A DNA stretch of 32,000 bases from positions 1-32,000 of the forward strand of contig JAUSKK010000036.1 in the NCBI GenBank assembly GCA_030649345.1, read 5' to 3'. Source of the stretch: Candidatus Iainarchaeum sp. (GTDB taxonomy: Archaea; Iainarchaeota; Iainarchaeia; Iainarchaeales; 0-14-0-20-34-12). Under the pieces are notes generated by a model, which ran no database searches, was not told the DNA's origin, and saw only the letters and a list, made by a program, of their open reading frames with translations. The stretch's first letter is position 1. Every line of letters begins with the position of its first letter. Shown here piece by piece: positions 2,462 through 24,895 of the stretch. The position numbers and the translations under genes are program-made.

Positions 2462-3208
2462 ATGATTATGGAAATTAAAAAAATAAGCGAAGAAAATGGA
2501 ATTCTAAAATTGTTAATCAAAGATTTGGATTTAGGATATATGAATGCCATTCGAAGAACCGTTATGGAAGAAATACCTGTTTTAGCAATGGAAACCATTC
2601 GAATTTACGAAAACAATTCAATCATATTTGATGAATTTTTAGCCCACCGGTTGGGAATGCTGCCTATTATTTCAGATGTAAAAGAATACAAAAAAGGAGA
2701 TATTGCCAAATTCATGGTAGACAAAAAAGGGCCTTGCACAGTATACAGTCAAGATATTATTCCAGTGGATCCCAAAACAGAAATTGCTACCAAAAATATT
2801 CCATTAACCAAACTCAAAGAAGGTCAAAGCGTAAAAATGGAAATGGATGCTTTAGCTGGAACTGGAAAAATGCATACTAAATTCCAACCCGGAATTGTAG
2901 CCTATACACAATTGCCTAAAATTAAACAAATGAAAGGAAAACCAGAAAAAGTAGTTCAGGCTCATTCCACCGGTTTACTGGAAGTCAAATACAATAAAGT
3001 TATGGCCAAAAACGCATACGATTGGACACCCAGTGATTACGAAGAAATTATGAAAGATTCCAATTTAGAAATTGAATTTGAAGAAAACAGTTTTGTGGTC
3101 AATGTGGAAACCTCAGGCGCAATGGAAAATATTGAAATACTCAATGCAGCCATTGATGTATTAAACGAAAAAGTAGAAGAATTCCGAAAGGAGATTGCAA
3201 AAATATAA
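2462..3208 (+). CDS. rpoD: DNA-directed RNA polymerase subunit D (Rpo3)
   Basis: 248 aa with NAIRRTVMEEIPVLAMETIRIYENNSIIFDEFLAHRLGMLP, typical of the RpoD/Rpb3 family, in the conserved position after S11. The start could be 2468. Confidence 0.85.
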   Translation: MIMEIKKISEENGILKLLIKDLDLGYMNAIRRTVMEEIPVLAMETIRIYENNSIIFDEFLAHRLGMLPIISDVKEYKKGDIAKFMVDKKGPCTVYSQDIIPVDPKTEIATKNIPLTKLKEGQSVKMEMDALAGTGKMHTKFQPGIVAYTQLPKIKQMKGKPEKVVQAHSTGLLEVKYNKVMAKNAYDWTPSDYEEIMKDSNLEIEFEENSFVVNVETSGAMENIEILNAAIDVLNEKVEEFRKEIAKI

Positions 3209-3216
3209 TTGCTTGC

Positions 3217-3337
3217 GCAGGAGTACCCAAGCGGCCAACGGGGCAGGACTTAAGTTCAAAGAATATTTACAAAGGAGAGAAGCGATAAGTGATCCTGTGG
3301 CTTAGTGCATTCGAAGGTTCGAATCCTTCCTCCTGCA
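3217..3337 (+). tRNA. tRNA-Leu(UAA) with a 37-nt intron at the canonical 37/38 position, no encoded CCA
   Basis: Acceptor stem GCAGGAG/CTCCTGC. Anticodon stem CAGGA(3244-3248)/TCCTG(3293-3297). Loop CTTAAG..A with anticodon TAA at 3251-3253. T arm GAAGG-TTCGAAT-CCTTC (3313-3329). Long variable arm and discriminator A3337. Confidence 0.85.
3255..3291 (+). other. tRNA intron with bulge-helix-bulge-like splice motif
   Basis: A 4-bp helix CTTA(3249-3252)/TAAG(3286-3289) is flanked by 3-nt bulges AGT (3253-3255) and TGA (3290-3292). Removing 37 nt leaves an 84-nt class II tRNA. Confidence 0.7.
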
Positions 3338-6514: not shown

Positions 6515-8557
6515 ATGAAATTTAAAATTGTATTTTTTGCAATTGCTCTAATTTTACTTTTAGGATGTACTCAGCCAAGTTCAGAAAATTCAACTCCCAG
6601 CGGACAAGCTGTTACTGGATTTGGAAATTCGTCCACAGTTCCAGTCATTAAAACCATTGTAATATACAATAACAATATAGGAGAAAGCTTACGCGATTTT
6701 ACCAGTCCTTTATGGCCAAAAACAGAAGACTGCTTAACACAAGCATGCATAGATGGAAGAACTACCAAACCAGACTTTAAATTTTTAGCAGGATTGCCTG
6801 CAAGCACGCCAGGATATGGTTATGCGAATGTACAATTCAATGGCTGGGCTAACAAAGGAGAAAGATTTACAACATTCACAGCAGGAGATGGAGTTAGTGC
6901 AACTTCTGGATCTGCTCAAGGAATTGTATACAAAGACGATGCAGGATTTGAACACAAAGTTCCGTTCTATTATACTTTGACTTCAATGTCTCAAGGCGGA
7001 AGTACATTCACTTTAGATGGTGCAACTTTCTATTACAAAGTAAGCACAGCTGATGTAAACTTTATTTTAACAGGAGATTTTGTATTAAACGGTTTTTCCG
7101 GGAATCTTACCAGAGATGGAAATCAAATTAGATTAAACACAGACAGAGGACCTTTGAATATCCCAAGTTATCCATACACAGTAAATGTAGATATTCGCAA
7201 AGTTAATTATACTTGTACAAGAATTGGAACTACATTTGCATTAAATTGCAATGCCGATGCAAACATGTCCATTACAACCAATGGAAGAACTTTCAGTCCA
7301 ACTCCAAGCTATGCAGACCTAATCACAGACGGAACCATTTACTTGGATGATGGAAACTTAATAAACAAAACAGGAATCTTTGGTGAAAGAAACAACATTA
7401 TTTGGATTACTTCAACAGTTGGAATGAATAATCAAATTTACGGTTATACACCTTACATTAATGAAACTCAAGGAAGAGTTTACCTGTTATTAGCACATCA
7501 AAATTTTATATCAACCGAAAACTCAAACTCTTACGGTTTTAGATTCTCAGGAACAGATACAGGAGAAGATGGAATCACTGATGTTGGGTTTTACTGGCTG
7601 GACAATATAGAATTACCTAAATTTGAAGGAAGTTCTACCAGTAACCGCCAAGATTACAACACAAATAGATCTCCACCCAGCGGAGATTCTTCCGATAATT
7701 ATAATTTCATTGCACAATTTGAAGTAGATACCGACAAAGACAGCATATACGATACAAAAATATACATAGACACAGCTACAGGAAAACCAATACAATTACC
7801 CAACACCAACTTAAGCACTTATACAGCAGATGTAAATTATAGAAAAGAAACTCAAAACTGGGGACTGTCTGCACGCACAGATATTCCGGTTTTACAAAAA
7901 GCATGGACTGATTACGGGAGCAAACTAGAAGTTACACCCAATCAATTCAAAGCCACAATTCCAGATAAGCGAAGAAAAATTGAATTCAAAGTATTGGGAA
8001 ATACAGGCACATCTGAAACTGCTTGGATTTACGATACCCAAAATTTAGATTCGCGCAATCAAAGAAGAGAATTGGTAAACAAAATTTTAAAGAAAGCACA
8101 ATTACCTTATTTAGTAGATCTAATAAAAACGCAGACTCATAATGGAAGTCCCTATAAAGAAAAAGTTACAGAAAGCATCAAACTAAACGGAGACGCATTA
8201 TTTGATTATGTTCGAACTATGATTGCAAATACAGTTACATCCATGCCTAGAATTAAAGATTTTTCTTACACAATCACATTCCAAAAAGGATTACCTATGG
8301 TCAATGATCCAACAACAGGAACACGCAGCGGAAGCTTTGTAGATGGAACTGATGATACCATCAGTGTTCCATTATTTGGCAAAAATTATACTTTAAAAGA
8401 AAGCAAACTCACACCAATACCAGAAATTACATTAATCGATGAATCTGGAAATACACTCAAATTAGTTCACGGACAAGCATTCCCTGCAAGCATGGATGTA
8501 AACGCAACCAATGATGCCAGCGATGACTATTGGAAAGTTGAACTCAATTTTAGATAA
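6515..8557 (+). CDS. Large secreted surface protein with lipobox-type signal peptide (S-layer/adhesin-like, function unknown)
   Basis: MKFKIVFFAIALILLLGC gives a signal peptide plus an LLGC lipobox. The 680-aa protein is rich in T/S/N/G, has many N-x-S/T sequons and has no further TM segment. Confidence 0.6.
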   Translation: MKFKIVFFAIALILLLGCTQPSSENSTPSGQAVTGFGNSSTVPVIKTIVIYNNNIGESLRDFTSPLWPKTEDCLTQACIDGRTTKPDFKFLAGLPASTPGYGYANVQFNGWANKGERFTTFTAGDGVSATSGSAQGIVYKDDAGFEHKVPFYYTLTSMSQGGSTFTLDGATFYYKVSTADVNFILTGDFVLNGFSGNLTRDGNQIRLNTDRGPLNIPSYPYTVNVDIRKVNYTCTRIGTTFALNCNADANMSITTNGRTFSPTPSYADLITDGTIYLDDGNLINKTGIFGERNNIIWITSTVGMNNQIYGYTPYINETQGRVYLLLAHQNFISTENSNSYGFRFSGTDTGEDGITDVGFYWLDNIELPKFEGSSTSNRQDYNTNRSPPSGDSSDNYNFIAQFEVDTDKDSIYDTKIYIDTATGKPIQLPNTNLSTYTADVNYRKETQNWGLSARTDIPVLQKAWTDYGSKLEVTPNQFKATIPDKRRKIEFKVLGNTGTSETAWIYDTQNLDSRNQRRELVNKILKKAQLPYLVDLIKTQTHNGSPYKEKVTESIKLNGDALFDYVRTMIANTVTSMPRIKDFSYTITFQKGLPMVNDPTTGTRSGSFVDGTDDTISVPLFGKNYTLKESKLTPIPEITLIDESGNTLKLVHGQAFPASMDVNATNDASDDYWKVELNFR

Positions 8558-10272: not shown

Positions 10273-10426
10273 TAGAAATTTAAGAGGCAAGGCACTATTT
10301 TTAAAGCTTTTGAAAGGCTAGTATTGTATACTGGTTTTATAGTCTACTTGCCGAAGGCAATTCGGAGGTATCGGAACCGAAGGTTCTGATTTAGACAGTA
10401 ACCGATGATAATTTGGAGGTTAGAAT

Positions 10427-11029: not shown

Positions 11030-11296
11030 ATGAATAATTGTTCATTTTGTGGAACTAACATTCAACAAGGTACTGGAATTATTTTTGTAAAAAGAACCGG
11101 AAAACGTTTTGATTTCTGTTCACGAAAATGTGAAAAAAATTTAATGAAATTAAATCGAAATCCAAGAAATTTCAAATGGACCCAAGAATACTGGAAAGAA
11201 AAAGGATTCCAGCAAGAAAAAGCAGGAAAAACTGAAACAGCTAAAAAAGAAGAAACTACAGAAAAGAAAGCTGTGAAACGAAAAAGAAAAAAGTAA
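11030..11296 (+). CDS. rpl24e: 50S ribosomal protein L24e
   Basis: CSFCGTNIQQGTGIIFVKRTGKRFDFCSRKCEKN zinc-ribbon N-terminus and a lysine-rich tail. Confidence 0.9.
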   Translation: MNNCSFCGTNIQQGTGIIFVKRTGKRFDFCSRKCEKNLMKLNRNPRNFKWTQEYWKEKGFQQEKAGKTETAKKEETTEKKAVKRKRKK

Positions 11297-11421
11297 ACAA
11301 TTCTGTGGTGCTGCAAGCACAATAAAACAAAATGTTTTATGTGCATCAAAATCAGCAGATTTTGATTGCACCACGTTCGACCAACCGGAACCCCGGTTGA
11401 AACGAAAGCGAAAAAAGTAAA
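11274..11421 (+). repeat. 24-nt direct repeat of the L24e 3' end (11274-11297 / 11398-11421, 22/24) bracketing a 100-nt multi-hairpin insert
   Basis: Read directly: TGAAACGAAAAAGAAAAAAGTAAA versus TGAAACGAAAGCGAAAAAAGTAAA. The insert stems are given in the findings. Confidence 0.8.
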
Positions 11422-11483
11422 ATAATTTAGTGGCACTGGCGCAGCAATGCAACAGTGTCACATACTATCAATCCGGTGATATT

Positions 11484-12401: not shown

Positions 12402-12506
12402 TATTGATTGCATACGGGTCAAGGCGCTGAGCCAACCAAAAGAAATATCCATTCAAAGTGCAGGATTACAGAATCCTAAAACTTTGAATAACTGTGTGTG
12501 AAAATT

Positions 12507-14252
12507 ATGATTCGACAACCGATTATTGTAGTCATGGGCCATATTGACCATGGAAAAACCAAATTATTGGACAGAATTCGCGGAACCACTATAGCTGAAA
12601 GAGAAGCTGGAGCGATTACGCAACATATTGGTGCTACTGAATTACCTGAAAATAAAATTCAAGCTATTTCTGGAAACTTATTAAAGCAATTTGGATTTCA
12701 ATTAGAAATTCCAGGCTTATTGTTTATTGATACGCCTGGGCATGATGCATTCACGAATTTAAGAAGACGCGGTGGAAGCATTGCCGATTTATCTATTTTA
12801 GTTGTAGACTGCATGCAAGGAATTCAACCGCAAACTTTGGAAGCCATTCAAATTTTGAAAACATTCAAAGTACCGTTTGTGGTAGCGTTTAATAAAATTG
12901 ACAAATTACAAAACTGGCAAAGCAAGACAGGTTCGTTTTTAGAAAATGAAAAAATTCAAACTACCCATGCCCAAGAATTATTGGATAAAAAAATCTATGA
13001 ATTGGTTGGAAGATTGTTTGAATTAGGATTTGAAGCAGAACGCTTTGATCGAATTCAAGATTTCCGAAAACAAATAGCTATTGTTCCTTTGTCGGCTGTG
13101 GTGGGAGAAGGAATTCCTGAATTGTTAATGATGCTGTCTGGTTTAAGTCAAAAGTTTTTGAAAAACAAATTGGAAATCGGAGAACAAGAAAAATGCAAAG
13201 GCACTGTCTTGGAAGTCAAAGAAGACAAAGGCCTAGGAACAACATTGGATGTAATTTTATACGAAGGATCTTTACGCGTAGGAGATATCATTGCTGTTGG
13301 AACCAAACAAGGAGTCACTGAAACCAAAATTCGTACTTTACTCAAACCCAAACCATTATCGGAAATACGGGATGAAAAAAATGTATTCAAATCAGTAGAA
13401 TCTGTAAGCGCGGCTTGCGGAGTAAAAATTTCCGCTCCAAACTTAGAAAATGTTTTAGCGGGTTCTCCAGTATTGGATGCCAGTGTGGAATCACGGCAAC
13501 AAATATTGGATGAAATTAAATCCATTAAAATTTCAACCGAAGATATTGGCTTAGTCATCAAAGCAGATACTTTAGGATCCTTGGAAGCATTGATTGGATT
13601 AATGAAAAACAATCAAATTCCAGTACGATCCGCAGATGTAGGAATGGTTACCAAAAAAGATGTCATGGAAGCTTTGGCTTCAAAAGAAAAAGATGTTTAC
13701 CATGGCTGTATTGTTGCATTCAATGTAGAAATTGATAAAACTGCAGAAGACGAAGCCAAAAAAAGAGAGATTCAATTATTTTCAGGAAAAGTAGTGTACA
13801 CCATTATTGATGAATATTCAAATTGGGTAAAAACTCAAAAAGATCAAATGAAAAAAAACAAGTCTACTTTCTTGATAAGTCCAGCAAAAATTGAAGTATT
13901 GCGAGGCTTTGTTTTTAGAAGATCCGATCCAGCCGTGGTTGGCGTAAAAGTATTGATTGGAAAAATTAAATCCAAAACAACATTGATTAATGAAAATACA
14001 ATGGTACGATTGCAGGGATTGCAGGAAGAAAAAAAGGCTGTTGAATCTGCAGAAAAAGGAAAAGAACTGGCAGCATCCTTAGAGAATGCAGTCATTGGCC
14101 GAAACTTGTTTGAAGGAGATATATTGTATACGTATATTCCAGAAAGCCAATTTGAAGAAATTCCAAAGTATTTGGAGCTAAATTCTGAAGAATTGGCCTT
14201 ACTGGAGGAAATAAAAAATGTTCAAATCAAACATAAAGAGAACGGAGGATAA
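12507..14252 (+). CDS. infB: Translation initiation factor aIF5B (IF-2 homologue)
   Basis: GHIDHGKTKLLD, DTPGH and NKID GTPase motifs; about 580 aa. GTG 12498 is an alternative start. Confidence 0.9.
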   Translation: MIRQPIIVVMGHIDHGKTKLLDRIRGTTIAEREAGAITQHIGATELPENKIQAISGNLLKQFGFQLEIPGLLFIDTPGHDAFTNLRRRGGSIADLSILVVDCMQGIQPQTLEAIQILKTFKVPFVVAFNKIDKLQNWQSKTGSFLENEKIQTTHAQELLDKKIYELVGRLFELGFEAERFDRIQDFRKQIAIVPLSAVVGEGIPELLMMLSGLSQKFLKNKLEIGEQEKCKGTVLEVKEDKGLGTTLDVILYEGSLRVGDIIAVGTKQGVTETKIRTLLKPKPLSEIRDEKNVFKSVESVSAACGVKISAPNLENVLAGSPVLDASVESRQQILDEIKSIKISTEDIGLVIKADTLGSLEALIGLMKNNQIPVRSADVGMVTKKDVMEALASKEKDVYHGCIVAFNVEIDKTAEDEAKKREIQLFSGKVVYTIIDEYSNWVKTQKDQMKKNKSTFLISPAKIEVLRGFVFRRSDPAVVGVKVLIGKIKSKTTLINENTMVRLQGLQEEKKAVESAEKGKELAASLENAVIGRNLFEGDILYTYIPESQFEEIPKYLELNSEELALLEEIKNVQIKHKENGG

Positions 14253-14255
14253 ATA

Positions 14256-14316
14256 AATGGTTCCAAAATTCGAAAGAATTTTGAAACTTTAAAAAACACG
14301 GAGGTTTTTTAATGGC
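14256..14316 (+). repeat. 61-nt module, copy A (84% identical to 24835-24895): inverted repeat + AAACTTTAAAAAA + G-rich box + TTTTTTAATG
   Basis: A by-eye alignment gives 51/61 identities. Inverted repeat CAAAATTC (14264-14271) / GAATTTTG (14276-14283). AATGG occurs at both ends (14256 and 14311). Confidence 0.8.
14288..14296 (+). promoter_or_regulatory. TATA-like TTTAAAAAA exactly 24 nt upstream of the S6e ATG
   Basis: The same 9-mer lies at the same 24-nt distance from the ATG at 17303 (spt4) and 24867 (dnaJ). Promoter function is not proven, because GGAGG between the box and the ATG could instead be an SD. Confidence 0.4.
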
Positions 14317-14734: not shown

Positions 14735-14747
14735 TTTTTGCGGGTCA

Positions 14748-14767
14748 CAGAAAACCAAGGTTTTCTG
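14748..14767 (+). terminator. 8-bp hairpin after S6e
   Basis: CAGAAAAC-caag-GTTTTCTG. The left arm repeats 11/12 nt of the S6e 3' end (14715-14726). Confidence 0.35.
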
Positions 14768-14813
14768 AAGAAACAAAAAAAGAATAATAAAATAAATGGA
14801 TGTGAACTAACTC

Positions 14814-16037
14814 ATGGCTGGAAAAAAAGTAAAAACAGACAGCAGTGCACAATGCGTGCAAGCTGAAGTGAATATTGGTTTAGCCGGCCATGTAGATGCA
14901 GGAAAAACAACTTTAACTCAAGCATTGAGTGGAAAATGGACAGACACGCATAGTGAAGAATTAAAGCGCGGAATTTCAATACGATTGGGATATGCGGATA
15001 TTGGAATTTATAAATGCAGTAAATGCAAAGAATTTAATTATTCGAATACCAGTGAATGCCCACAGTGTAAATCTCCAGGTATTTTAGACCGCAAAGTTAG
15101 TTTTGTGGATGCGCCAGGGCATGAAACATTAATGACTACTATGTTAAGTGGAGCTGCACTTATGCAAGGCGCTTTGTTGGTAATTGCCGCCAATGAAACT
15201 TGCCCGCAAGCACAAACCATTGAACACTTGAATGCATTAATTATCAGCGGCATCGAGCAAGTCATTGTAGTGCAAAGCAAAGTAGATTTGGTCACCGAAG
15301 AACGAGCATTGGAAAGTCATAAAGAAATTAAAGAATTTTTGAAAGACACCCAATACAAAAACGCGCCCATTGTACCCATTGCAGCACATTTCAAAATCAA
15401 TATTGATATATTATTGGAAGAAATTCAAAAAAGTATTTCTTCGCCGAAATTTGATTCTACAAAACCATTGAAAATGTTTTGTGCACGATCTTTTGATATT
15501 AATAAACCAGGAACGCTTCCTTCAGAATTACATGGAAGTGTTTTAGGCGGAACCATTATTCAAGGAACCATCAAAAAAGGAGACACCATTGAATTAACTC
15601 CTTGGCTGGATGGAAAACAAATTCAAACCAAAGTTATTGAAATTCGAACCAGCGATGGAGTCTTAGAAGAAGCCAAGCCAGGCGGTTTAATTGCAATAGA
15701 AACTTTATTGGATCCAAGTTTAGCACAAAACGATCAGCTTAAAGGCCAAAACATTGGAGCTGTAGGAATATTCTCTGAACCTACCACAGTCTTGAAAATA
15801 GAAATGCATTTTTTGGATCGAGTTGTTGTCAGCAGTGCTAAACGAGTAGTGCAAGGAGATGACTTGGTTTTAACAGTTGGAACTGCAACTTTGTTGGGAA
15901 TTGTTTCCAGCGTAAAAGGAAATACTGTAGTTGTTGCTTTGAAGAAACCAGCCGTAGCTGAAAAAGAACAAAAACTTGCAGTCAGCAAACGAGACCAAAT
16001 GAAATGGAGATTAATTGCTTACGCAATCAATAAATAA
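14814..16037 (+). CDS. eif2g: Translation initiation factor aIF2 gamma subunit
   Basis: GHVDAGKTTL, the zinc-ribbon insert CSKCKE...CPQCKS, DAPGH and SKVD; 407 aa. Confidence 0.9.
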   Translation: MAGKKVKTDSSAQCVQAEVNIGLAGHVDAGKTTLTQALSGKWTDTHSEELKRGISIRLGYADIGIYKCSKCKEFNYSNTSECPQCKSPGILDRKVSFVDAPGHETLMTTMLSGAALMQGALLVIAANETCPQAQTIEHLNALIISGIEQVIVVQSKVDLVTEERALESHKEIKEFLKDTQYKNAPIVPIAAHFKINIDILLEEIQKSISSPKFDSTKPLKMFCARSFDINKPGTLPSELHGSVLGGTIIQGTIKKGDTIELTPWLDGKQIQTKVIEIRTSDGVLEEAKPGGLIAIETLLDPSLAQNDQLKGQNIGAVGIFSEPTTVLKIEMHFLDRVVVSSAKRVVQGDDLVLTVGTATLLGIVSSVKGNTVVVALKKPAVAEKEQKLAVSKRDQMKWRLIAYAINK

Positions 16038-16130
16038 TCAAAACTATCGAGGCAAAGCCGAAGATAGTTTAAAGTACCGCCGGCTTTCCGGCGAAACGGA
16101 GATTAATTGCTTACGCAATCAATAAATAAT
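16001..16130 (+). repeat. 38-nt direct repeat of the aIF2-gamma 3' end (16001-16038 / 16093-16130, 37/38) bracketing a 54-nt two-hairpin insert
   Basis: GAAA[T/C]GGAGATTAATTGCTTACGCAATCAATAAATAAT occurs twice with a 92-nt period. Confidence 0.85.
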
Positions 16131-16610
16131 ATGCAATCAATCAATAAAAAAATGAATATTAAAAATGAAAAAAAATTAAACAGTGCTGCTGAAGTGCAAC
16201 GAAAGCAGCACGTGCTACCAACCCGCACGCGGGTTGCAATTGACACAAATATGTTGTTAAGTGTCAGTCAATTAAAATTGGATATTTTTCAAGAAGTAGT
16301 CAACGAATTTGGAGAACAAAATTCTGAAATTGCAATCCCAGATAGGGTATTAAATGAATTAAAAAAATTGGCAGAAATTGAAAAAAACAAAGATGCCATT
16401 TTAGCTCAAGCCTGGTTAAACCAGAAAAAATTTAAAGTTTTGAAAGCCCAAAAGGCCGATAATGCAGATAAAGCCCTTTTAGAGCTTGCAAAACAAGGGT
16501 TTATCATAGCTACCAATGATAAAGTCTTACGAAAAAGTATAAAAAACGTTAATGGCAAGAGTATTTATATTAGAAAACGAAAAGTACTAGACTTTTCAGA
16601 AACATTCTAA
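16131..16610 (+). CDS. PIN-domain protein (conserved archaeal Fcf1/Utp24-like neighbour of aIF2-gamma and rpoE')
   Basis: VAIDTNMLL...IIATNDKVLRK are acidic PIN motifs. The track start, TTG 16107, lies inside the duplicated aIF2-gamma end. ATG 16131 or 16152 is more plausible. Confidence 0.75.
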   Translation: MQSINKKMNIKNEKKLNSAAEVQRKQHVLPTRTRVAIDTNMLLSVSQLKLDIFQEVVNEFGEQNSEIAIPDRVLNELKKLAEIEKNKDAILAQAWLNQKKFKVLKAQKADNADKALLELAKQGFIIATNDKVLRKSIKNVNGKSIYIRKRKVLDFSETF

Positions 16611-17262: not shown

Positions 17263-17330
17263 AATTTTAAATGAATTTAAAATTTAAAAAAAATTTTAAA
17301 ACTTTAAAAAACCGGGGGTTTTTTAAATGA
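17263..17330 (+). repeat. 10-nt direct repeat TTTTAAATGA (17265-17274 / 17321-17330) around a 46-nt AT-rich promoter-like insert at the spt4 start
   Basis: Exact repeat with a 56-nt period. Inverted repeat AATTTTAAA (17263-17271) / TTTAAAATT (17276-17284). AAACTTTAAAAAA at 17299-17311. Confidence 0.5.
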
Positions 17331-22636: not shown

Positions 22637-24523
22637 ATGAGTAAAGTAATTGGAATCGATTTAGGAACCAGTAATTCAGCAGCTGCAGTCTTGGAAGCAG
22701 GAAAACCAAAAATTATTCCAAGCGCAGAAGGAACTTCTTTATACGGAAAAGCATTTCCAAGTGTTGTGGCATTCACAAAAGATGACCAAGTTTTGGTGGG
22801 TGAACCGGCACGCAGACAAGCTGTCAGTAATCCAGATAAAACAATTATGGCAGCCAAGCGAAAAATGGGAACTACTTTCAAATACAAGATTGGCTCGAAA
22901 GAATTTACGCCTCAACAAATTAGTGCATTTATTTTACAGAAAATTAAAAAAGACGCAGAAGAATTTTTAGGCGAAAAAGTAGAAAAAGCTGTAATCACTG
23001 TGCCAGCTTATTTTGATGACAATCAAAGACAAGCAACCAAAGATGCAGGAGAAATTGCAGGCTTGGAAGTTATTCGAATTATTAATGAACCCACAGCTGC
23101 TGCTTTAGCCTATGGCTTAGATAAAAGCAATCAAGACATGAAAATTTTAGTATTCGATTTCGGCGGCGGAACATTGGATGTAACTGTAATGGAATTAGGC
23201 CATGGAGTCTTTGAAGTCAAATCAACCAGCGGAGACACTCAATTGGGCGGCACAGACATGGATAAAATTTTAGTGGATTATTTGGTGGCAGAATTCAAAA
23301 AAGAACAAGCTGTTGATTTAAGCAAAGACAGTGTAGCTATGCAGAGATTACGAGAAGCTGCAGAAAAAGCCAAAATTGAATTAAGTACAGTTTTGGATAC
23401 ACAAATTAATTTACCGTACATTACAGCTACTCCGGAAGGCCCGAAACATTTGGCCCTGAGTTTAACAAGATCAAAATTAGAACAATTGGTCGAGCCCTTA
23501 ATTCATAGATGCGAAAAACCAGTCCAGCAAGCTTTGGCGGATGCCAAAGTATCCCCGGGAGATGTAGCTAAAATTATTTTAGTCGGCGGACCAACCCGAA
23601 TGCCTGCAGTACAAAAGTTTGTGGAAAAAATTACAGGAGCCAAACCAGAACGAGGCATTGACCCAATGGAATGTGTAGCTATGGGTGCAGCCATTCAAGC
23701 CGGAGTTTTAGCTGGAGAAGTTAAAGATGTTTTATTATTGGACGTAACACCCCTAAGTTTAGGAATTGAAACCTTGGGTGGAGTGTTTACTCATTTAATT
23801 GAACGCAATACAACCATTCCAACCAAAAAAACTCAAATATTTAGCACAGCTGCAGACAACCAAAATGCAGTAGATATTCATATCCTGCAAGGAGAAAGAC
23901 CTATGGCAGTAGACAACAAAAGTTTGGGCAGATTTATTTTAGATGGAATTCCTCCAGCACCTCGCGGTGTTCCACAAGTTGAAGTCATGTACGATATTGA
24001 TGCCAACGGAATTTTGGATGTTAAAGCCAAAGATTTAGGCACAGGCAAAGAAAAAAGCATCAAAATTGTTTCTCCGCAAAAATTGGATAAAGAAGAAATT
24101 GAGCGAATGAAGCAGGAAGCGGAAAAGTTTGCAGAAGCGGATCAAAAGAAAAAAGAAGAGATTGAAACTTTGAATATGGCAGACAACACAGTTTATGGGA
24201 CTGAAAAGGTGTTGAAAGAATTGAGCGGGAAAATTTCTGCAGAACAAGAAACAGAAATTAAAGAAAAAAATGAAACATTAAGAAAATTAGTAAACGAGCC
24301 AACCAAAGATGTTGCAAAAATTAAAACAGCTTTAGATGACTTGAATGCATTCGTGCAAAAAATCAGTACAGAAATGTATCAAAAAGCCGGAGAACAATAC
24401 CAGCAACAAAATCAAGGAGAACAAGGAAATCCCGGACAAGAAGAAGAACACAAGCACAAAAAGAAAAACAAAGACGGAAAAGTGGTTGACGCGGAGTTTA
24501 AGGAAGACGAAAGCAAACAATAG
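22637..24523 (+). CDS. dnaK: Chaperone DnaK (Hsp70)
   Basis: [23 protein letters not shown] and [10 protein letters not shown]; 628 aa. Confidence 0.95.
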
Positions 24524-24659
24524 TGCTGAACGCAGTGAAGCACTACGACCTACCAACCGCGCGATTAAAACGCAGCGTTTTAATGCGCATTTAAACAAAA
24601 GTTTAAATCGCGTCCGCGGTTGACGCGGAGTTTAAGGAAGACGAGAGCAAACAATAGTG
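24484..24659 (+). repeat. 42-nt direct repeat of the dnaK 3' end (24484-24525 / 24618-24659, 41/42) bracketing a 92-nt GC-rich multi-hairpin insert
   Basis: GGTTGACGCGGAGTTTAAGGAAGACGA[A/G]AGCAAACAATAGTG occurs twice with a 134-nt period. Confidence 0.9.
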
Positions 24660-24688: not shown

Positions 24689-24817
24689 ATGAATCCTGAA
24701 GTGAAAGCAAAAAAAGTTGAACCTGTTTTGAAGAATCAACCGAAAGCAGAAGATGTAGTTATTCTTGGCCAAGCAAAAAAATCAAGAGATTACTTGAATA
24801 ACTTTATGGCAGCATAA
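24689..24817 (+). CDS. Hypothetical 42-aa protein between dnaK and dnaJ
   Basis: ATG preceded by GGAG 9 nt upstream. Sequence MNPEVKAKKVEPVLKNQPKAEDVVILGQAKKSRDYLNNFMAA, with no recognisable motif. Confidence 0.3.
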   Translation: MNPEVKAKKVEPVLKNQPKAEDVVILGQAKKSRDYLNNFMAA

Positions 24818-24834
24818 TTAATCAGGTAGAAATC

Positions 24835-24895
24835 AATGGTTCCAAAATTCTTTTGAATTTTGAAACTTTAAAAAATAAAGGAATTTTTTAATGGC
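24835..24895 (+). repeat. 61-nt module, copy B (see 14256-14316) directly upstream of and including the dnaJ start
   Basis: Inverted repeat CAAAATTC (24843-24850) / GAATTTTG (24855-24862). TTTAAAAAA at 24867-24875. AATGG at 24835 and 24890. Confidence 0.8.

Follow-up and report, generated by a model that had tools for sequence, protein, structure and literature searches.

In the 32-kb window (the whole stretch of DNA analysed here), the end of the aIF2-gamma gene is duplicated around a 54-nt hairpin insert, which separates the gene from a downstream gene encoding a PIN-domain protein, and two further gene ends, those of L24e and dnaK, have the same layout. These arrangements were probably produced by lineage-specific, non-coding double-hairpin elements copied in after stop codons, with target duplications of 29-42 nt. 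Our analysis covers three duplication events, all of them from one genome and located within 14 kb.

The aIF2-gamma gene (14814..16037, + strand; 407 aa) is an open reading frame 100% identical to an NCBI protein annotated as translation initiation factor IF-2 subunit gamma [Ca. Diapherotrites archaeon]. Its last 37 nt, including the stop codon, fall in copy 1 (16001..16038, + strand; repeat family D14) of a 38-nt direct repeat, whose copy 2 (16093..16130, + strand) is identical at 37 of the 38 positions, 33 nt of them forming an exact match. The repeat had been reported in a first-pass annotation of this DNA, and both re-reading and alignment of the last 55 nt of the gene to the following 350 nt (score 35.5; z = 18 against shuffles) confirmed that the gene-end duplication is real. 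Copy 1 is the functional gene end, since it finishes the open reading frame (...KWRLIAYAINK, TAA at 16035-16037, followed by 1 nt), as the annotation had it, and the sole mismatch between the copies (T16005/C16097) was correctly described as non-synonymous, converting TGG (Trp) to CGG (Arg) in the aIF2-gamma frame. The reconstruction of the original spacer between the stop codon and an ATG of the PIN gene as AT needs correction, as a single base (T16130) lies between the TAA and ATG 16131. Copy 2 contains a GGAG motif (16098-16101) and a TTG codon (16107) in frame with the PIN domain. It is followed by a stretch (16131..16180, + strand) in which a third, weak and partial echo of the gene end (GCAATCAATCAATAAA, 16133-16148), also noticed previously and visible on direct reading, precedes a very A+T-rich filler (12% G+C).

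The insert between the two copies, E1 (16039..16092, + strand), is composed of hairpin A (16041-16070, with arms 16041-16048 and 16063-16070 and an inner GGC-aaa-GCC), a 7-nt linker and the G+C-rich hairpin B (16078-16093, with arms 16078-16083 and 16088-16093), whose final base also opens copy 2. Both hairpins lie exactly where the first-pass annotation placed them, and only the linker had been given as 6 nt. The 71-nt stretch containing E1 has a folding energy of -23.8 kcal/mol, compared with -12.1 ± 2.5 kcal/mol for shuffled sequences (z = -4.6; 0 of 200 shuffles as good), and the G+C content of E1 is 50% vs. 35% for the window. An earlier statement that E1 has the same architecture as the insert downstream of dnaK is valid for the layout and does not extend to the sequence: E1 has no significant similarity to the DnaK insert or to any other of the elements described below (p > 0.06), and no further copies of it were found in the 32-kb window, where it is single-copy. 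The layout common to the other sites suggests that E1 may nevertheless be a mobile element.

At the L24e/NDK site, copy 1 (11274..11302, + strand) comprises the L24e gene end (stop codon at 11294-11296) and the following 6 nt. It is followed by a 95-nt insert designated X (11303..11397, + strand), a member of what we refer to as the CCAACC family, in which hairpin 1 is branched and has two A+T-rich hairpins nested in it, and hairpin 2 (CAACCGG/CCGGTTG) follows; its fold is highly significant (z = -6.3), and it is matched by the family covariance model with 44 bits. Copy 2 (11398..11427, + strand), recognized by alignment to copy 1, is older and degenerate, and it still encodes KRKRKK-stop; over the core the copies are identical at 22 of 24 positions, and both differences are synonymous. 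Y (11428..11483, + strand), a decayed member of the same family (hairpin fold z = -5.3; 37 bits), lies immediately before the start of NDK (GGTGA followed by TTG 11484); the Pfam NDK domain starts at residue 20 of the open reading frame that begins at 11430.

The DnaK site, for which the same layout as at aIF2-gamma had been proposed, indeed carries a 42-nt duplication around a 92-nt insert. Copy 1 (24484..24525, + strand; repeat family D13) comprises 40 nt from the end of dnaK, stop codon TAG (24521-24523) included, and a further 2 nt. The insert (24526..24617, + strand; CCAACC family) consists of hairpin 1 and then CAACCGCG / CGCGGTTG, which close two nested A+T-rich hairpins (fold z = -3.5; 20.6 bits). 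Copy 2 (24618..24659, + strand; D13) differs from copy 1 by one synonymous substitution (A24511/G24645; 41/42 identical). An open reading frame of 65/42 aa starting in this copy has no homologues among 1.84 billion representatives and is therefore probably not a gene; a dual use of DnaK copy 2 was rejected.

Thus, the gene-end duplications amount to approx. 29 nt (L24e, the older one), 38 nt (aIF2-gamma) and 42 nt (DnaK), around inserts of 95, 54 and 92 nt, respectively. Such echoes were found at 3 of the 41 gene ends in the window (z = 9.6, 18 and 25.7, in the same order). At all three sites the right-hand boundary of the duplication lies 1-7 nt past the stop codon, and copy 1 completes the open reading frame. 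Two of the sites show tandem arrangements, namely (i) copy 1-X-copy 2-Y and (ii) copy 1-E1-copy 2-echo-E2.

E2 (16181..16236, + strand) is a two-hairpin element of the CCAACC family located between copy 2 and the PIN domain. It contains hairpin 1 (16183-16211), CTACCAACC (16215-16223) and hairpin 2 (16219-16236), matches the covariance model with 43 bits, and is stop-free and in frame with PIN. The conserved PIN_9 coding region extends from 16233 to 16610 (+ strand), as delimited with Pfam and by BLASTP against the PIN protein of a related genome (L082). Consequently, ATG 16131, previously taken as the start of the conserved PIN gene, does not mark it: the Pfam domain begins at residue 35 of the open reading frame from this codon, the homologues (122-134 aa) are without the 34 N-terminal residues, and E2 lies in between. 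The whole stretch 16131-16232 (102 nt) is open, as is the longer reading frame (16107..16610) from TTG 16107 into the PIN domain, and the candidate start codons are TTG 16107, ATG 16131, ATG 16152 and GTG 16212. Judging by these signals, copy 2 plausibly keeps a ribosome-binding site (GGAG) and an in-frame start (TTG 16107) for PIN.

Four of the five elements (the DnaK insert, X, E2 and Y) are homologous. E2 resembles the DnaK insert (z = 7.2), X (z = 9.1) and Y (z = 4.7), and within the family the stem CAACC...GGTTG is conserved, while its inner pairs vary yet remain complementary (CGC/GCG, GG/CC and GCG/CGC). With the covariance model, four copies were detected in the 32-kb window, and its application to 1.2 Mb of relatives, in the form of the hairpin-2 module, gave 0 hits. 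The inserts have a G+C content of 44-61% (vs. 35% for the window) and fold strongly (z from -2.4 to -6.3). The hairpins are internal to the inserts, and hairpin 1 (GTGsTGC...) is unrelated to hairpin 2 (CAACC...GGTTG). Direct reading of the ends of E1, X and the DnaK insert revealed no terminal inverted repeats, i.e., the ends are not reverse complements. None of the inserts matched an Rfam 15 family at the gathering threshold or at E values up to 5, nor did they fit, by eye, a hammerhead, C/D box, H/ACA or K-turn structure; no tRNA or tmRNA was found near them. A Pfam search of 30 window proteins identified no transposase, integrase, reverse transcriptase or Cas protein (including Cas1). Gene-start echoes of note were absent upstream of the genes.

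Comparison with relatives showed that the state observed here is the inserted one. Of 37 relatives in which a PIN gene is adjacent, 29 have the aIF2-gamma stop codon at -11 to +26 nt relative to the first residue of the PIN domain, vs. a gap of 195 nt in this genome. In L082 the two genes overlap by 17 nt, and L24e and NDK overlap by 4 nt; in L082 and in a second relative (L004) the PIN start codon and its GGAG are placed inside the last aIF2-gamma codons. The spacer of 2-5 nt that the first-pass annotation expected at empty sites is therefore not the usual state, in which the genes overlap; the insertion reading itself agrees with these data, as the insert and copy 2 account for 92 extra bases and the junctions of relatives are mostly "empty". 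Similarly, the dnaK-dnaJ spacer is 22-46 nt in two relatives (L027 and L038) vs. 367 nt here.

Nothing comparable to the stop-spanning echoes was detected at 3161 ORF ends (1.2 Mb; 81 loci of relatives), and the same result was obtained in a scan of this 1.2 Mb for short-range direct repeats. The best echo candidate among the relatives (in L061) looks like tandem paralogues and was discarded. A metagenome pattern scan gave six matches, all in unrelated G+C-rich contigs, and BLAST against phage and plasmid collections returned nothing significant. The scan of GTDB genomes revealed no relative with more than 58% aIF2-gamma identity. A closer relative, with 84% identity, is present in ENA (ERZ27297570, a contig of 1811 nt), and its aIF2-gamma gene has a gap of 102 nt behind it.

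The repeats were also examined in an independent assembly (k = 31) of run SRR13727527. At the aIF2-gamma site, one of its contigs ends at 16035 (inside copy 1) and another starts at 16101 (inside copy 2), exactly as predicted for a 33-nt exact repeat, which provides independent support for the duplication. One contig (L084) contains L24e and X in a form identical to the window, and another (L085) starts precisely where DnaK copy 2 does (24618), a boundary that hints at an empty-site allele and so at recent gain or loss. A further break falls at one 31-mer that spans hairpin 2 of X, from which an additional copy in the sample can be deduced. This second copy of the hairpin-2 module, as deduced from the assembly graph, diverges directly after ...GGTTGAAA, so it does not carry the L24e end along.

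We propose that elements of approx. 55-95 nt, with a G+C content above that of the genome, would be copied into the chromosome just 3' of a stop codon, in the orientation of the gene, and that each insertion would duplicate the last 29-42 nt of its target, giving the order gene end, element, gene end. At the locus studied here, aIF2-gamma and PIN would originally have overlapped, and the older E2 may already have been in frame at the PIN N-terminus when E1 arrived with a 38-nt duplication spanning the zone shared by both genes. Copy 1 would now finish aIF2-gamma, while copy 2 would serve PIN with its GGAG and TTG 16107; both genes would have survived, and the pair would have become un-overlapped. 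We infer that the elements are mobile and that the duplications arose during insertion, that joining occurred via short microhomologies, and that insertions are retained by selection only if the duplication includes the stop codon. Microhomologies of 5 nt are present at two of the three sites: (i) TAGTG at the DnaK 5' junction, which corresponds both to the family consensus at the 5' end and to the native stop codon followed by TG, (ii) GGTTG at the DnaK 3' junction, which is the 3' end of the family and also part of the native VVDAEF codons, and (iii) TGAAA at the 3' junction of X, where, to judge from the repeated 31-mer, the element extends to ...GGTTGAAA. At the junctions of E1 the microhomology is at most 1 nt.

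Several points weigh against this explanation. E1 is single-copy in the window and has no detectable kinship to the other four elements, the inserts have no terminal inverted repeats, the window encodes none of the enzymes searched for, the duplications are much longer than those known to us from MITEs or GC clusters, the three events come from a single genome, and the stop-adjacent right boundaries at 3 of 3 sites are poorly explained by selection alone, especially at dnaK, because no conserved downstream gene starts inside that duplication. A rather speculative extension, which we entertain only tentatively, is an undescribed microhomology-primed copy-in process, with RNA or ssDNA as the template, aimed at the ends of translated open reading frames and inherently duplicating their last 30-40 nt. 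Should such copying be real, it would constitute an archaeal counterpart of SINE-like retroposition, allowing the invasion of genomes without free intergenic space, in which genes become un-overlapped and new spacers, N-terminal extensions and possibly promoters arise. As to a target motif common to the left edges of these duplications, 10 of 14 positions agree (GAAAyGGAG... vs. GACGCGGAG...), and with p at about 0.1 it is not claimed.

Copying mediated by RNA would be one particular way for these elements to insert and is, in our judgement, unlikely. Structured hairpin RNAs would be reverse-transcribed at a target nick, with the nicked strand priming on the RNA 3' end (...GGUUG/GAAA) by microhomology, and cleavage of the second strand, or a template switch, at 29-42 nt further downstream would generate a variable duplication, as in SINEs and LINEs. 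The variable length of the duplications (about 29, 38 and 42 nt), the microhomologies at the 3' (GGTTG at dnaK, TGAAA at X) and 5' (TAGTG at dnaK) junctions and the combination of strong structure with absent terminal inverted repeats are as expected from this chemistry. The sense orientation of all five elements relative to the flanking genes also fits, but it is confounded, because 38 of the 41 window genes are on the + strand; moreover, the window encodes no reverse transcriptase, and the microhomology at E1 does not exceed 1 nt. Target-primed reverse transcription, known from non-LTR elements and SINEs, likewise yields variable duplications and junction microhomology without inverted termini, and SINEs have a small structured RNA passenger of the kind proposed here, but neither a reverse transcriptase nor an A-tail was found in our case. 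To our knowledge, this process is confined to eukaryotes, apart from group II introns, which leave no duplication, and we know of no SINE-like retroposition in archaea.

Site-specific integration by a recombinase, in which the two copies would represent attL and attR, the element would bring a replacement gene end and the hairpins would be miniature or remnant elements, is improbable. Integration at gene 3' ends is known from the elements of tRNA genes, from phage 21 and e14 (both in icd) and from casposons, which use the 3' end of aEF-2. As in these integrative elements (tRNA-gene plasmids and viruses, phage 21/e14, thaumarchaeal casposons), the duplication keeps the gene intact, the size of the repeated block is similar (15-60 nt) and tandem integrations occur. 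The blocks found here run from inside the gene to +1, +2 or +6 nt past its end, with the gene restored, which is the classic att signature; their length (24-42 nt) is typical of att sites, and the tandem arrangements at two sites point in the same direction. Three of the four differences between copies are synonymous, which would suit copies that have both served as a coding end, but this bias is not significant (p about 0.18). The known elements measure kilobases and encode their own recombinase, whereas the cargo here is a non-coding hairpin structure of 54-95 nt at three genes within 14 kb, with no recombinase nearby and no integrase in the window. In addition, three genes would require three att specificities, and the second copy of the X hairpin-2 module is without the L24e end.

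Even less probable is a non-mobile origin, with locally evolved regulatory hairpins (mRNA 3'-end stabilisers, processing sites or promoter cassettes) and duplications generated by replication slippage or template switching at hairpin-stalled forks. In bacteria, hairpins of REP type immediately downstream of stop codons are known to influence mRNA stability and translation termination. Other perfect small hairpins, missing in L082, occur in the window spacers, a cassette composed of a hairpin and a TATA-like sequence is found three times in the window (family D1), and the junction microhomologies are compatible with template switching. Against this, four elements at three loci have a common primary sequence with identical sub-modules, and a 31-mer is repeated elsewhere, which indicates dispersal rather than independent origin; the family is missing from 1.2 Mb of relatives, and a simple tandem duplication would double the hairpin too. 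An assembly artefact or a strain-variant chimera is hardly credible, even though the sequence comes from a metagenome-assembled genome and the independent assembly of this heterogeneous sample breaks every 2-3 kb, as the repeat lengths match no k-mer size, the inserts are unique and structured, L24e and X were recovered unchanged, the breaks at aIF2-gamma are those of a true repeat, and the layout is biologically coherent at three sites.

The elements described here resemble the hairpin elements of mitochondrial type, i.e., the GC clusters of yeast, the double-hairpin elements of Allomyces, the repetitive hairpin-forming elements of sponges and the "byps" of Magnusiomyces. Both groups are roughly 30-100 nt long, non-coding, richer in G+C than the host (here 44-61% vs. 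35%) and built of one or two hairpins (partly PMC4478555). GC-cluster-type elements are spread over the spacers of compact, A+T-rich genomes and may be nested in one another, as observed here, and sometimes they lie in frame inside genes, like E2 and Y. They differ in being organellar and not tied to stop codons, whereas the inserts described here reside in an archaeal chromosome, and the two groups are unrelated in sequence. The flanking duplication of yeast GC clusters is 2-3 nt (AG or ACT; PMC4478555), in contrast to the 29-42 nt determined here. Further similarities connect the inserts with MITEs and the REP, ERIC and Correia repeats, which are multi-copy and, like the inserts, non-autonomous, structured, intergenic and lineage-specific, and are often located directly after stop codons, affecting mRNA fate. 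As to copy number, the CCAACC family has four similar copies dispersed in 32 kb and an additional one deduced from the assembly graph, while E1 is single-copy in the window. MITEs possess terminal inverted repeats, and their duplications are short and constant in length; neither trait was found (the duplications are long and variable: approx. 29, 38 and 42 nt), and REP elements leave no duplication. The duplications of MITEs or GC clusters known to us are all far shorter than 29-42 nt, and we know of no enzyme responsible for the movement of GC-cluster-type elements.

Several other systems show partial likeness. The mycobacterial interspersed repetitive units (MIRUs) are intercistronic operon units of 40-100 nt, always oriented with the genes, open in frame and with ends overlapping the stop codon upstream and the start codon downstream, but they are tandem self-repeats rather than hairpin modules, and the flanking gene end is not duplicated. 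Cas1-Cas2 integration and the insertion sequences IS1634/IS1549 generate flanking duplications of about 30-40 nt or of variable length; CRISPR inserts, unlike those found here, are unstructured spacers of approx. 30-40 nt beside a leader and identical repeats, and IS1634-type elements have inverted termini and a transposase, both absent here. A CRISPR mini-array, in which one repeat recurs at every unit between unstructured spacers of about 26-72 nt, with a leader or cas genes, was rejected: here each "repeat" is the end of a different gene (three in all), the "spacers" (54-95 nt) are structured and homologous, and the window contains no cas genes. PATEs (derived from IS200/IS605) and REP/RAYT systems are expected to show no duplication, a conserved tetranucleotide and similar left and right hairpins recognized by a single Y1 transposase, which disagrees with the long duplications and with the unrelated hairpins 1 and 2. 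In diversity-generating retroelements, which have a VR/TR pair at a gene 3' end and a reverse transcriptase nearby, mismatches occur only at adenines of the template repeat and the repeats are about 100-150 nt long; this system was discarded in view of the single mismatch per pair (T/C, A/G), the repeats of 38-42 nt, the housekeeping targets and the lack of a reverse transcriptase in the window. An integron attC site was excluded too, because a defining feature is not present.

In the very compact genomes of DPANN archaea, overlaps between adjacent genes are frequent, which means that an ordinary insertion would do damage at nearly every position. A long duplication spanning the stop codon (and here also the start signals of the neighbour) would let a selfish hairpin element land harmlessly between overlapping genes, after which a new, structured spacer would separate the two. 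Provided that the pattern extends to the whole genome, it would represent a new kind of small archaeal mobile element, possibly with a new insertion chemistry, as well as a mechanism for separating overlapping genes and an origin of new 5' and 3' untranslated regions. It would also help annotation and assembly: the PIN gene carries an annotated N-terminal extension that is largely an inserted element, and short-read contigs break at exactly these element sites.

The window covers a cluster of ribosomal and translation genes from a DPANN archaeon, whose aIF2-gamma is 100% identical to a protein of a 'Candidatus Diapherotrites archaeon' MAG in NCBI, while the next-nearest sequences share 84% (ENA) and 64% identity. 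For all 41 genes of the window, the terminal 55 nt were aligned to the gene's own downstream sequence, which distinguished three gene-end duplications. At the aIF2-gamma gene (14814..16037; 407 aa), the repeat reported in the first-pass annotation was recovered as a 38-nt direct repeat (16001-16038 and 16093-16130; z=18) with the single mismatch T16005/C16097; its first copy comprises the last 11 codons of the gene, the TAA stop and one more base. The dnaK repeat to which it had been likened was also found (24484-24525 versus 24618-24659; identity at 41 of 42 positions, z=25.7), its copies being separated by a 92-nt insert. The third duplication, absent from the earlier finding, is located at the L24e gene (stop codon 11294-11296; 11274-11302 versus 11398-11427, z=9.6), and its copies, identical at 22 of 24 positions over the core, flank a 95-nt branched-hairpin insert, X (11303-11397). 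At all three sites the stop codon lies inside copy 1, and the duplication ends 1, 2 or 6 nt beyond it. The copies differ by TGG/CGG (non-synonymous) at aIF2-gamma, GAA/GAG (synonymous) at dnaK and AAA AGA/AAG CGA (both synonymous) at L24e, a number too small to discriminate between models. The same scan applied to relatives (3161 ORF ends in 1.2 Mb, 81 loci) revealed no comparable stop-spanning duplication; the best candidate, in locus L061, resembles tandem paralogues.

The proposal that sequence had been inserted at these sites was borne out by the corresponding junctions of relatives, where empty sites were found. In the closest relative compared at the DNA level (locus L082), with the gene order of the window, L24e and NDK overlap by 4 nt, and aIF2-gamma and PIN by 17 nt. 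The spacing between the aIF2-gamma stop and the first PIN-domain residue, 195 nt in the window, was measured in 37 relatives with PIN adjoining aIF2-gamma; it is -11 to +26 nt in 29 of them (commonest value 1), 70 nt in one, and about 720-780 nt, with an extra gene in between, in seven. The dnaK-dnaJ spacer is 367 nt in the window versus 22-46 nt in two relatives (L027 and L038), and in another (L016) a small ORF lies between these genes. The shorter or overlapping junctions of relatives therefore indicate that sequence was gained at these junctions in the window lineage. Two other spacers contain perfect hairpins: the dUTPase-aIF5B spacer (12402-12497; 96 nt; TTCAAAGT...ACTTTGAA), the same gene pair overlapping in L082, and the S6e-aIF2-gamma spacer (14735-14813; 79 nt; CAGAAAACC-aa-GGTTTTCTG), the genes being ~10 nt apart in L082. 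These hairpins may be further old insertions with no detectable duplication.

Primary sequence is common to four elements (the CCAACC family): the DnaK insert (24526-24617), X, a second two-hairpin element near aIF2-gamma (E2; 16181-16236), and Y (11428-11483), a decayed member placed after L24e copy 2 and directly upstream of NDK. The similarity of E2 to the DnaK insert, X and Y reaches z=7.2, 9.1 and 4.7, respectively. Hairpin 1 follows the pattern GTGsTGC...GCAsCAC, contains a G/A-rich internal loop and is followed by a short spacer and hairpin 2, which opens with C(T/G)ACCAACC; the outer pairs CAACC/GGTTG of hairpin 2 are conserved, and the inner pairs vary among copies with complementarity kept. 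A covariance model of the hairpin-2 module identified exactly these four copies in the window and gave no matches in 1.2 Mb of relatives. An extra A+T-rich hairpin pair is present in both X and the DnaK insert; the pair of X occupies the loop of its hairpin 1, that of the DnaK insert the loop of its hairpin 2, and the two pairs are homologous (z=3.45). Because these perfect mini-hairpins (11322-11366 and 24563-24609; e.g., ATTAAAACG-cag-CGTTTTAAT and ATTTAAAC-aaaa-GTTTAAAT) nest in different loops of the host elements, they suggest a second, smaller element inserting into hairpin loops.

The 54-nt insert at aIF2-gamma, E1 (16039-16092), contains both hairpins described in the first-pass annotation, at the coordinates given there; the 71-nt stretch that includes them folds at -23.8 kcal/mol versus -12.1 +/- 2.5 in shuffles, and the G+C content of E1 is 50%, compared with a window mean of 35%. 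E1 has the two-hairpin layout of the other elements and a GAAAC tail resembling X; it shares no significant sequence similarity with the other four elements and has no second copy in the window. By its layout match to two neighbouring events whose inserts demonstrably form a family, E1 may be considered a putative mobile element. No Rfam family was matched by any insert. All five elements are in sense orientation to the adjoining genes, yet 38 of the 41 window genes are encoded on that strand.

On the evidence of three events in 32 kb of one genome, we consider it probable that these are dispersed, non-autonomous double-hairpin elements, copied in past stop codons with target duplication. An element copy, at each of three sites, would be placed immediately 3' of the stop codon, the insertion would generate a target duplication of 29-42 nt, and selection would retain events with the stop codon (and, where needed, the start signals of the neighbour) inside the duplication. 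The DnaK event shows a 5-nt microhomology at each of its two junctions: TAGTG is the family consensus 5' end and also the dnaK stop plus TG, native since copy 2 keeps it before unrelated sequence, and GGTTG is the family 3' end and also falls within the conserved VVDAEF codons native to the gene. At X, TGAAA is common to the element end and the target, and E1 has at most one base in common with its target; the aIF2-gamma and DnaK duplications resemble each other at their left edges (10 of 14 positions), a likeness that is not significant. The microhomologies and the variable duplication length favour a putative annealing-dependent process over a classical cut-and-paste transposase; this could be template switching, or target-primed synthesis with RNA or single-stranded DNA as the copied form. 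An integrase-type origin would best account for duplications ending at a gene end, a pattern reminiscent of att sites in integrative elements and casposons, but it is improbable, as it is hard to square with a cargo of 54-95 nt, three different targets and the lack of a recombinase; Pfam analysis of 30 window proteins revealed housekeeping functions only, with transposase, integrase, reverse transcriptase and Cas protein all absent. A strictly local origin without mobility conflicts with the sequence common to three loci and appears even less credible.

In behaviour, the window elements come nearest to the G+C-rich hairpin elements known from A+T-rich organelle genomes (yeast GC clusters, Allomyces double-hairpin elements and 'byps'), with MITE and REP-type repeats of bacteria also close. 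To our knowledge, none of these element types has been described from DPANN archaea. Their duplications are 0-3 nt (PMC4478555) or short and fixed, compared with 29-42 nt in the window. No compared family has its defining feature set fully represented here, and the elements are therefore classed as probable small non-autonomous mobile elements with a possibly new insertion mechanism.

The 195-nt gap before the PIN domain is composed, 5' to 3', of E1 (54 nt), copy 2 (38 nt), a partial third gene-end echo with A+T-rich filler (50 nt), and E2, which adjoins the PIN_9 domain (start at 16233; Pfam). The ATG at 16131, previously taken as the conserved PIN start, could not be upheld, since it implies a 34-residue N-terminal extension found in no homologue (122-134 aa). 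In the NCBI annotation (152 aa; Q7S92_04480), the N-terminal extension is encoded mostly by E2 and the A+T-rich filler. Spanning exactly 102 nt, the region 16131-16232 keeps the frame and contains no stop codon, so that E2 may be translated as an inserted, in-frame part of the PIN protein, possibly similar to the Rickettsia palindromic elements, which are likewise translated inside a protein. Alternatively, the annotated start may be wrong, and PIN may begin at GTG 16212 within E2. In locus L004 (58% aIF2-gamma identity), TGGAGATTAATTGCTTATGG is nearly the same as in the window and contains the PIN ATG, with GGAG 11 nt upstream; the arrangement in L082 is similar. The window counterpart of this ATG is ACG in both copies, and copy 2 carries GGAG (16098-16101) followed by TTG 16107, in frame with PIN. 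The 38-nt duplication begins 5 nt upstream of this plausible ribosome-binding site of PIN, ends 1 nt after the stop codon of aIF2-gamma and thus covers the presumed dual-use zone, which would explain the tolerance of this insertion. The argument fails at dnaK, where the small ORF after copy 2 (24689-24817, between dnaK and dnaJ; 42 aa, or 65 aa from TTG 24620 in copy 2, with GGAG ahead) is an orphan with no homologues among 1.84 billion representative proteins, and it does not obviously hold at X. That every insertion point lies close to a stop codon may therefore reflect the mechanism itself, as far as three events can show.

The window is partly covered by six contigs from an independent Logan assembly (k=31) of run SRR13727527. 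At aIF2-gamma, the end of one contig at 16035 and the start of another at 16101 are exactly what a 33-nt exact repeat predicts. At L24e, contig L084 carries L24e and the entire X, identical to the window, and ends at 11401, and contig L086 begins at 11373; their terminal k-mers are separated by just one 31-mer (11372-11402), which we infer to have a second context in the sample. This 31-mer (X hairpin 2 up to ...GGTTGAAA) would belong to another module copy diverging right after GAAA. At dnaK, contig L085 begins at the exact first base of copy 2 (24618) and continues through the right flank. Copies 1 and 2 have no common 31-mer, so this start is most simply read as the G-variant copy having a second left-hand context. 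Judging from the contig ends, this could be an insert-free allele, ancestral or derived from recombination between the repeats; such an allele in the same sample would amount to a presence/absence polymorphism. A full-length DnaK product was not among the Logan gene calls. Random breaks occur only every 2-3 kb, and three breaks at three junctions are therefore not a coincidence.

Several other features of the window were recorded. A 66-nt cassette is located upstream of S6e, Spt4 and DnaJ (14251-14316, 17265-17330 and 24830-24895; 83% identity between the first and third); it consists of a perfect hairpin (CCAAAATTC-loop-GAATTTTG) followed by GAAAC and TTTAAAAAA, resembling BRE and a TATA box ~24 nt ahead of the ATG, with AATG(G/A) at both ends of each copy, and is a candidate mobile promoter cassette. 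The aIF5B and S6e genes of L082 adjoin each other directly. A tRNA gene interrupted by a long intron (3217-3337) was detected in a permissive search with the Rfam tRNA model (42 bits, E=7e-6) and was missed by the default Rfam run and by ARAGORN. The TrmB-GluRS interval encodes a 680-aa ORF (6515-8557) without a Pfam domain; what L082 encodes instead is an unannotated 258-aa protein, at the opposite side of GluRS. The L7Ae gene is preceded by a G+C-rich leader with strong structure (10330-10420; GCCGAAGGCAATTCGG..., GGAACCGAAGGTTC..., CCGATGATAA), which may be a K-turn-type autoregulatory 5' UTR.
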